A stretch of 64,000 nt of DNA, taken from the sequence record PP925844.1; one strand, given 5' to 3'. This DNA comes from Escherichia phage Elenatom. The position numbers were made by a program, and so were the translations under genes. Each line of letters opens with the position of its first letter. Positions within the stretch are counted from its first letter, which is position 1. The notes under the pieces are model-generated. The model was not told the origin of the DNA, ran no database searches, and saw nothing but the letters and a program-made list of their open reading frames with translations. Shown in pieces: positions 57,713 through 59,037 of this stretch.

Positions 57713-58161
57713 TCAACAATCACAATTTCTAATTTAGAGGAATATGTATCTAAAATCCCCTCAATAATATCCCAGTTCCCTTTACCTATGCCTGCACCAA
57801 TCCTAGGCATATAGATTGTAGGTTTAATCAGTTTATTTTCACCAAACTCATTTAATTCTAACATACAATTCATTAAAGCGGAATACTCAAAATTTGGCCC
57901 TGATTGAAATTGAGTATAAAGGTTGAAGCAATACGCTTTATGAGTCCTAAAGTATTTTTCATAGACTGAGTAAGAACCGAGTTTAGTTACATCACCCCAT
58001 TCAGTCTGTAATTTATCAGCTTCCAAAATTTTAGGGAAAGCTTTGGTTAATTGACCCGCTACGCCTGAACCCATAGTATGAAAACAATTGCATCCATGCG
58101 CAATATTTTTACCTTCAGCGAAAAGGGCGACAATATCGCCCTTGATATATTTTACAATCAT
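57694..58161 (-). CDS. macro-domain-like protein (possible ADP-ribose binding/hydrolase)
   Basis: 155 aa; HGCNC...GSGVAG resembles macro-domain nucleotide-binding loops. Confidence 0.45.
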   Translation of the reverse strand: MIVKYIKGDIVALFAEGKNIAHGCNCFHTMGSGVAGQLTKAFPKILEADKLQTEWGDVTKLGSYSVYEKYFRTHKAYCFNLYTQFQSGPNFEYSALMNCMLELNEFGENKLIKPTIYMPRIGAGIGKGNWDIIEGILDTYSSKLEIVIVDWEPLL

Positions 58162-58499
58162 CTAGTACTCAATCCTCGATTATAAGAATCTACCAAACGG
58201 TCAACCATTGAATGACAAGCGGCTTTATCTTTCTCCTCCGCAACTGAACATTCTAAGGTATTCCACTTTTTAGCATATCGTTTTAATAATGTATCGTTTT
58301 TGTATCTGCTTGATTTATCTCTTTCTCCGTCTTTATATGCATATATTAATTTCTGCGCAAATTCAGCTTGGCATGCTTTATTTTTCCCACAATAATCCGC
58401 GGCAGTACGGTTTACATACTCTCTAATTTCAGTATATGATGTATCTGCTAACGCAGAAAATGAAATTAATCCTATACATAAAACCAAAATTTTAGTCAT
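58158..58499 (-). CDS. periplasmic Cys-containing protein
   Basis: 113 aa; signal peptide ending SALA; four Cys. Confidence 0.5.
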   Translation of the reverse strand: MTKILVLCIGLISFSALADTSYTEIREYVNRTAADYCGKNKACQAEFAQKLIYAYKDGERDKSSRYKNDTLLKRYAKKWNTLECSVAEEKDKAACHSMVDRLVDSYNRGLSTR

Positions 58500-59037
58500 T
58501 TACTATTTCCAAAAGTTTATTATTTTTAAGGTAATTAGCCTTTTCTAGGACTTCAGAAGCATATTTAGAACCAGCTTTAACATTCCATCCCGAATTATAA
58601 GAGGATATTGCTTTTCTTATATCGCCCTTATGTATATTTAACCAATAAGAAAGTTCAATGTACGCCCAGGAAGCTGAATTGGATCGTTTATTCAACATTC
58701 TTTTTATTTCAGCATCGGTCATATTATAACCAAGTTCCTTAACTCTTGCTCGCATAGTAGGCAAATAATTTTGGAACATTCCATAAGCGTGATGCTTTGG
58801 TTTAGATTTTAAATTAACTCCGCCAGAGCTTTCTTGCCATAAAATAGCAGCCATTATATGACCTAATCCGCTCTTGTGGATATTTTTGTGTGTTTTATAT
58901 TTTCCATCCTTAGAAAATTGTTCCCCGAATTGATACGCGTAACGCATGTTATCGAGTTGGACATTACTGAAAGTATGCTCGGAGCTATGTGCCATCATTG
59001 AAATGGCCAATAGACCAGCGAGTAGTGCTTTTCTCAT
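58492..59037 (-). CDS. secreted lytic transglycosylase (SLT domain)
   Basis: 181 aa; signal peptide; catalytic ES in WQESSGG, then YGMFQ and SYNSG motifs. Confidence 0.65.
   Translation of the reverse strand: MRKALLAGLLAISMMAHSSEHTFSNVQLDNMRYAYQFGEQFSKDGKYKTHKNIHKSGLGHIMAAILWQESSGGVNLKSKPKHHAYGMFQNYLPTMRARVKELGYNMTDAEIKRMLNKRSNSASWAYIELSYWLNIHKGDIRKAISSYNSGWNVKAGSKYASEVLEKANYLKNNKLLEIVND

Follow-up and report, generated by a model that had tools for sequence, protein, structure and literature searches.

The vs.1-vs gene pair of Escherichia phage Elenatom: a predicted exported SLT-type enzyme and its co-encoded neighbour Vs

The analysed DNA, a stretch of 64,000 nucleotides from Escherichia phage Elenatom (PP925844.1) that is called the window in the following, carries on its minus strand two open reading frames (ORFs) of 181 amino acids (58492-59037) and 113 amino acids (58158-58499), which overlap by 8 nt and are, by sequence comparison, the gene pair vs.1-vs of phage T4. 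We propose that Vs.1 is an exported enzyme of family GH23 and that Vs is a co-translated periplasmic protein acting together with it, an explanation that we consider moderately probable as a whole. A preliminary description of the window had pointed to a secreted lytic transglycosylase with a periplasmic partner at 58158-59037. The two overlapping ORFs are real and have exactly this span on the minus strand, while the genes had been presented there without being recognised as vs.1 and vs of T4 and without the SLT similarity of vs.1 that was already published (PMC1524935).

The region 57600-59600 showed 99.6% identity to Tequatrovirus genomes, with 656 phage records matching this 2-kb stretch, and judged by its sequence the source phage is a Tequatrovirus and a close relative of T4. 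The 181-aa protein is identical to T4 ORF 61.4 (vs.1; 100% amino acid identity) and matched PHROG 600 with an E-value of 2e-68. The 113-aa protein matched PHROG 1256 (E 5e-40) and showed 96-97% identity to the T4-type Vs of 115 aa, which is annotated as "valyl-tRNA synthetase modifier"; it differs from the latter by an indel of 2 residues within its hydrophobic N-terminus, at the c-region of the signal peptide. Both gene names, vs.1 (T4p112) and vs (T4p111), were confirmed in the T4 record NC_000866, and the order regB-vs.1-vs-tk.4 as well as the overlapping start and stop codons are the same in this phage as in T4. As a gene finding this is ordinary, since both genes are catalogued in T4. The interest for specialists lies in Vs, which is named for a cytoplasmic function but bears periplasmic hallmarks over a large evolutionary distance and is coupled to a predicted murein-cleaving enzyme.

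Vs.1 as a predicted exported SLT-type enzyme

Based on sequence profiles and structure prediction, we hold with good confidence that Vs.1 is an exported GH23 enzyme. Residues 61-154 (58576-58857, minus strand) matched the Pfam SLT domain (PF01464) with an E-value of 1.4e-5 and 25.1 bits, which is above the gathering cut-off of 21.3, and in a set of 13 divergent homologues, each from another phage genus, 12 matched the same domain independently. These 13 distant homologues originate from Tevenvirinae, other T4-like genera (among them Krischvirus, Bragavirus and Tulanevirus), a T4-like phage of Acinetobacter, Kuttervirus, Felixounavirus and Klebsiella phage RCIP0006, which is unclassified, and they thus extend from Straboviridae to Ackermannviridae and Felixounavirus. 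A search of NCBIfam gave no match for either Vs.1 or Vs. Tail proteins and internal virion proteins that carry the SLT domain are among the PHROG matches of Vs.1. In total, 2,013 phage records matched Vs.1.

The motifs listed in the preliminary description (ES, YGMFQ and SYNSG) are all present, as QE69S70SGG, at residues 85-89 and at residues 146-150. The putative catalytic residue is Glu69, encoded by a GAA codon at 58831-58833 (minus strand) within the motif WQESS. This residue is invariant in the close (22 of 22) and in the distant (13 of 13) homologues, and S70 is conserved to at least 90% in both sets. Furthermore, G86, Q89, E128, S146-Y147-N148-x-G150 and Y159 are invariant across the 13 genera, while an invariant F at position 88 was found in the close set only. 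In profile alignments, Glu69 falls into the column of the E-S-motif glutamate of EtgA (IAWNESK) and of goose-type lysozymes (SRESRAG), which we take to be the catalytic residue of these enzymes. Since no invariant aspartate was found in the aligned family of 13 distant homologues, a single-glutamate transglycosylase is favoured over a hydrolytic lysozyme, and a hydrolytic mechanism of the goose type is correspondingly disfavoured for Vs.1.

Structure prediction with AlphaFold2 (AF2) resulted in a model of Vs.1 with a predicted local distance difference test (pLDDT) of 87 and a predicted template modelling score (pTM) of 0.82, for which AF2 and Foldseek together point to an all-helical, goose-lysozyme-like fold. 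The top 26 Foldseek matches in the PDB comprised only lytic transglycosylases, goose-type lysozyme, a Ralstonia chitinase or the phi6 lysin, with MltD, Slt70 and LtgA among the transglycosylases; presumably, most of these matches belong to GH23. The two tests that the preliminary description had set for its own proposal, an SLT fold in structure prediction and conservation of the catalytic glutamate, thus both came out in its favour.

The vs.1 SLT prediction is already known and has been in print since 2003/2006. Nolan et al. (2006, PMC1524935) described SLT similarity in all six vs.1 orthologues they examined, corroborating earlier PSI-BLAST matches for T4, and some GenBank records already carry the label "transglycosylase SLT domain-containing protein". 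An experimental study of Vs.1 function was not found in the literature. In some other records, Vs.1 homologues are mislabelled as "endoribonuclease RegB", "C-type lysozyme/alpha-lactalbumin family protein" or "ABC transporter ATP-binding protein".

Among sequences of solved structures, the best match of the Vs.1 family profile was EtgA (E 0.007), with the E-S, GxxQ and YNAG motifs in register. Like EtgA, IpgF, IagB, VirB1 and P19, which are specialised family-1 lytic transglycosylases, Vs.1 is small (class of ~150-190 aa) and combines a predicted signal peptide with E-S, GxxQ and (A/S)YNxG motifs. EtgA belongs to the type III system of enteropathogenic Escherichia coli and is controlled by a protein partner, EscI. 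However, the similarity of Vs.1 to EtgA is remote, as the E-value given above results from a comparison of a profile with a sequence, and Vs.1 differs by an additional conserved N-terminal segment (residues 20-58, with Q27, N30, A34, Y35 and G38) and by the invariant E128. In addition, Vs.1 is encoded by a lytic phage without a secretion apparatus, and Vs is unrelated to EscI. In its predicted fold and in the location of the catalytic glutamate, Vs.1 agrees with Slt70, MltD, LtgA and the goose-type lysozymes, whereas its template modelling (TM) score against these enzymes is only ~0.45-0.56, the identity to them is 14-18% and Vs.1 comprises a single domain.

SLT-type catalytic domains also occur in other phage proteins such as T7 gp16, phi6 P5 and PRD1 P7, and the phi6 lysin is one of the fold matches of Vs.1. 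These three are structural proteins that are delivered at entry. Contrary to such virion-borne enzymes, Vs.1 is free-standing, carries a predicted Sec signal and is encoded among non-structural genes, which implies that it should reach the periplasm of the infected cell from inside.

The predicted Sec signal peptide of Vs.1 comprises residues 1-18, MRKALLAGLLAISMMAHS, followed by S (58984-59037, minus strand), and consists of MRK, a hydrophobic core of 13 residues and AHS|S at the putative cleavage site. In Vs, the predicted signal peptide likewise comprises residues 1-18, MTKILVLCIGLISFSALA, followed by D (58446-58499, minus strand), with MTK, a core of 15 residues and ALA|D. Both were recognised by a crude heuristic for the n-, h- and c-regions, which demands a positive n-region, a hydrophobic core of 10-15 residues and small residues at positions -3 and -1. 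The window contains 112 non-nested ORFs with a minimum length of 60 aa, and this rule flagged seven of them, including vs.1, vs, spackle and rI. Spackle and rI are the two experimentally known periplasmic T4 proteins of the window and served as positive controls. In all homologues, the 22 close and 13 distant ones of Vs.1 as well as those of the Vs family, neither the sequence nor the length of the N-terminal ~20 residues is fixed, while their hydrophobicity is kept. The same segments are poorly defined in the AF2 models, with a pLDDT below 50 for residues 1-3, 8-11 and 13-17 of Vs.1 (low over the N-terminal ~17 residues) and for residues 1-19 of Vs. The signal peptides claimed for both ORFs in the preliminary description are therefore retained as predictions.

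Other modes of membrane attachment were rejected. Neither protein has a lipobox or a cysteine at position +1, which argues against lipoprotein anchoring, and a signal-anchor-release (SAR) domain as in rI was dismissed for Vs.1 because its hydrophobic core comprises only 13 residues. The cores of both proteins are too short as membrane anchors. Elsewhere in the window, further signal- or anchor-like ORFs are located at 24796-25176, 49283-49690 and 40473-40688, all on the minus strand; they comprise a 126-aa protein with a lipobox-like LTGC (PHROG 1754), a 135-aa protein (PHROG 2547) and a hydrophobic ORF of 71 aa, and the functions of the PHROGs are unknown.

Altogether, Vs.1 would be produced from the leftward string regB-vs.1-vs-tk.4 and exported by the Sec pathway, and the loss of the ~18-residue signal peptide would leave a soluble, basic periplasmic GH23/SLT enzyme of ~18.8 kDa. 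It would most likely act as a single-glutamate lytic transglycosylase using Glu69 in the cleavage of the bond between N-acetylmuramic acid and N-acetylglucosamine of murein. In its character, it may be closer to EtgA and the other small, "specialised" transglycosylases that belong to secretion systems than to lysis enzymes.

Vs and its family

Judged from its sequence features, Vs is probably a periplasmic protein. It contains five cysteines, of which C8 lies in the signal peptide and C37, C43, C84 and C95 in the mature part; the four cysteines mentioned in the preliminary description thus agree with the mature protein but not with the total. The AF2 model (pLDDT 83) comprises four helices (residues 20-37, 41-61, 68-84 and 89-110), and this four-helix bundle has no known structural relative. 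Since C37 and C43 flank the first turn between helices and C84 and C95 the third one, the mature protein, with a predicted mass of 11.0 kDa, probably contains the disulfides C37-C43 and C84-C95. A full-length, N-terminally His-tagged T4 Vs was reported to be insoluble in E. coli (PMC8076793), which fits a blocked secretory protein, although weakly.

Homologues of Vs carry a precomputed assignment to Pfam PF26829, while our Pfam scan of Vs itself gave only a sub-threshold chance match to Cauli_AT (13.4 bits compared to a cut-off of 24.8). An exhaustive phmmer search with Vs resulted in only 7 cluster representatives. A divergent branch of the family was found via the gene that follows vs.1 in Gelderlandvirus S16, Jiaodavirus KSKp, Krischvirus RB49, Bragavirus phiP4-3 and an Acinetobacter phage. 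This branch is homologous over the full length (hhalign probability 98.4%, E 1e-14) at an identity of 29%, and the T4-type and the divergent Vs, including those from phages of Acinetobacter and Proteus, align at the signal-like N-terminus and at each of the four cysteines. The T4-type Vs was found in 795 and the divergent Vs in 385 phage records. In contrast to these features, the charge is not conserved, as the isoelectric point (pI) ranges from 4.8 to 9.0 across the family. In GenBank phage records, Vs is often mislabelled "valyl-tRNA synthetase", a name that belongs to the modified enzyme.

Three of these phages, S16, KSKp and the Acinetobacter phage, encode a third ORF of 130-141 aa behind vs, which overlaps the vs stop codon (2366-2767, 2363-2755 and 2288-2713 of loci L010, L011 and L012, respectively). 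It shows a signal-like N-terminus and a WEKLPGYPE-type motif, belongs to PHROG 4957 (unknown function) and is missing in both T4 and the window. With this ORF, the three phages would have three consecutive, apparently exported proteins.

The relation between Vs.1 and Vs

The stop codon of vs.1 and the start codon of vs overlap within the 8 nt ATGACTAA (58492-58499, minus strand), which suggests translational coupling. In nine genera, the start of vs is located between -8 and +7 nt from the stop of vs.1, with the Shine-Dalgarno sequence lying within the end of vs.1. In the two identity groups that are closest, Vs.1 and Vs matched equal numbers of phage records, 501 each in one group and 155 each in the other.

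A further hint comes from transposon sequencing of T4 (10.1101/2025.11.20.689424), according to which both genes are non-essential, with insertions at 30 of 32 and 46 of 52 TA sites. In the control of the HIDEN-SEQ experiment in LB medium (sheet S8), vs and vs.1 showed similarly low mean counts of 26.6 and 22.6, while the neighbours regB, tk.4 and vs.3 showed 178.6, 289.6 and 652. On M9-glucose, vs was the most strongly depleted gene (log2 fold change -2.19, adjusted p 0), vs.1 showed a change of -0.87 (p 0.0055, adjusted p 0.155), and the mean counts were 5.0 for vs and 11.9 for vs.1. A clean deletion of vs in T4 plated poorly on this medium, according to the same preprint.

Based on the tight coupling in at least nine genera and on the alike low transposon counts, a joint action in the periplasm is proposed. 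Vs would be translated from the start overlapping the vs.1 stop and also be exported, forming an ~11-kDa four-helix bundle with probably two disulfides. Together, both proteins might form a non-essential periplasmic accessory that serves to modify or control the local cleavage of murein before lysis and matters more in minimal medium. We regard the cooperation itself as tentative, with somewhat less than an even chance of being correct. Of the claim of a periplasmic "partner" in the preliminary description, the coupling in nine genera, the signal-like N-terminus and the low transposon counts speak in its favour, while the existing name of Vs, which refers to the cytoplasm, does not fit.

In the classical T4 work, the purified factor reportedly had a size of ~10 kDa, and a temperature-sensitive synthetase was reportedly subject to the modification in vivo as well. 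The target of the classical factor, valyl-tRNA synthetase (ValRS), is a cytoplasmic enzyme, and the factor apparently acts on it in vivo as well. A periplasmic Vs could not modify ValRS in vivo, which weighs against the proposed explanation, as do the following points. Homologues of Vs.1 that retain the signal peptide and the glutamate occur without a detectable Vs in Aeromonas phage phiAS4, Kuttervirus SenALZ1, Felixounavirus HY02 and Klebsiella phage RCIP0006. Since Vs.1 is present without Vs in these four phage groups, Vs is not required for Vs.1 to function, and an obligate enzyme-immunity relation is disfavoured. The gene order of T4-like phages is broadly kept and their genes are tightly packed, so that adjacency and coupling are weak evidence for a joint function. 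Polarity on vs could account for the transposon phenotype of vs.1. No sequence or fold similarity was found between Vs and the known lysozyme or transglycosylase inhibitors spackle, Ivy, MliC/PliC and PliG. For Vs.1, the Foldseek scores are modest (best E 7e-3, TM 0.37-0.56 among the top 26, probability up to 1.00), and we infer both catalysis and export, the latter from the n/h/c layout and its conservation.

That Vs was named for binding the host ValRS (Mueller & Marchin 1975/1977, as cited in PMC8076793) can be brought together with the predicted export by one of three explanations: partial export, an imperfect gene assignment, or a wrong prediction of export. The predicted export signal and the conserved cysteines fit the function of a ValRS modifier poorly. 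Nevertheless, the strongest form of the proposal, in which Vs (ORF 60.9) would be a Sec-exported, disulfide-bonded periplasmic partner or regulator of the Vs.1 transglycosylase and not a cytoplasmic ValRS modifier at all, is considered doubtful. If it were true, either the vs locus has been equated with the wrong ORF or the complex of ValRS and the tau factor mainly forms after cell breakage, and the defect of vs mutants in minimal medium would be an envelope or murein phenotype rather than a translation phenotype. The plating phenotype of vs on M9-glucose (10.1101/2025.11.20.689424) makes this clash easy to test. The outcome would be either a function for a transglycosylase family that is widespread in ~2,000 phage genomes or an unusual dual-compartment protein.

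Rather unlikely is the possibility that Vs.1 is an exported transglycosylase next to an unrelated Vs, which would be the cytoplasmic tau factor binding host ValRS and whose hydrophobic N-terminus would be used for export only partly or not at all. The annotation as ValRS modifier is long-standing and found in PHROG 1256 and hundreds of GenBank records, the defect of the vs knockout is specific to minimal medium, in which the supply of amino acids and aminoacylation are important, and both the T4-like synteny, which is kept for many unrelated genes, and the occurrence of Vs.1 alone in several phage families also speak for mere neighbours. However, a cytoplasmic Vs is difficult to reconcile with the retention of the signal-like segment and of four cysteines despite divergence to 29% identity, and disulfides from conserved cysteine pairs are not expected in the reducing cytoplasm. 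Moreover, the low insertion counts are common to vs and vs.1 but not to the flanking genes. By analogy to T4 spackle and gp5 lysozyme or to effector-immunity pairs, Vs could alternatively restrain Vs.1 in the periplasm, as a dedicated inhibitor or an immunity-like brake, and thereby prevent premature wall damage before holin-timed lysis. Spackle (Sp), the inhibitor of gp5 lysozyme, is encoded in the window at 18916-19209, and like spackle, Ivy, MliC/PliC and PliG, which act on a periplasmic murein hydrolase, Vs is small and predicted to be exported by Sec. Some periplasmic lysozyme inhibitors also contain disulfides. In nine genera, the gene of a small exported protein directly follows that of an exported wall hydrolase and is translationally coupled to it, which would suit such a brake, and the greater loss of vs than of vs.1 insertions on M9-glucose has the direction expected if unrestrained Vs.1 were harmful. 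On the other hand, phage families carrying Vs.1 alone evidently tolerate the enzyme, knockouts of vs are viable, and the depletion of vs.1 insertions themselves is not predicted by toxin-antidote logic unless they are polar. Since Vs also lacks fold similarity to any known inhibitor, spackle included, and its charge is not conserved, an inhibitor appears quite unlikely.

The roles in exclusion or lysis timing put forward in the preliminary description are speculation. Participation of both proteins in lysis timing, lysis inhibition or superinfection exclusion would be in line with the position of the pair between the lysozyme gene e (62180-62674, same strand, 3.1 kb upstream of vs.1) and the lysis inhibition gene rI (2.1 kb downstream), and with a periplasm that they would share with rI and spackle. 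The distance to e also means that the pair is not, as had been stated, far from this gene. In Felixounavirus HY02, an unrelated myovirus, the Vs.1 homologue (1501-2049 of locus L005) directly follows genes annotated as RIIA and RIIB "lysis inhibitor", and an Rz-like spanin gene is located at a distance of ~1.2 kb, a setting that may point to a role in the envelope or in lysis. However, both vs.1 and vs are non-essential in the transposon screen, and a lysis phenotype is not mentioned in the consulted passages of the literature. To our knowledge, the genes e, t, rI, rIII, those of the spanins, imm and sp explain the genetics of lysis, lysis inhibition and exclusion in T4. We therefore consider a lysis role very unlikely and prefer the joint periplasmic accessory described above.

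Gene neighbourhood

Upstream of vs.1, regB is located at 59045-59506 (minus strand; Pfam REGB_T4, E 1.4e-68). A GAGG Shine-Dalgarno sequence of vs.1 (59043-59046, minus strand) overlaps the regB stop codon, with vs.1 starting 5 nt later, and a ribosomal RNA-binding site is annotated at this position in the T4 record X04567. On the downstream side, the macrodomain gene tk.4 (57694-58161, minus strand; Pfam Macro, 27.9 bits) overlaps the stop codon of vs with its start codon in ATGA. The tk.4 gene of T4 was reported as AdfM, a counter-defence factor against DarTG2 (preprint 10.1101/2025.11.20.689424).

A promoter-like site, TTTACT-17-(TG)TATAAT, was found in a consensus scan at 59534-59562 (minus strand) and is likely the early promoter of the regB-vs.1-vs string. 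It agrees with the consensus at 10 of 12 positions and has an extended -10 element (TGnTATAAT); the site is a consensus match only, and the total of promoter-like sites in this region is not above the shuffled expectation. With vs.1 and vs in a leftward string behind this strong early-type match upstream of regB, the designation as an early operon is a reasonable one. The statement that the pair lies far from baseplate genes agrees with the stretch from 55 to 64 kb, in which none were seen.

About 15 nt past the vs stop codon and within the first codons of tk.4, the sequence AAGGGCGAcaataTCGCCCTT (58123-58143) forms a perfect, G+C-rich palindrome of 8 bp, followed on the minus strand by TTTTCG. 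In the near-identical record OL631480 a rho-independent terminator is annotated here, so that transcripts may partly end after vs.

Further upstream, denV (61704-62120) directly adjoins e, while ipII and ipIII, which are located between these two genes in T4 (X04567), are missing here. The ORF at 60324-60686 (minus strand, 120 aa) corresponds to T4 vs.6 and is annotated in a near-identical record as an autonomous glycyl-radical cofactor (GrcA-like); a Gly_radical match of vs.6 was noted by Nolan et al. (2006, PMC1524935).

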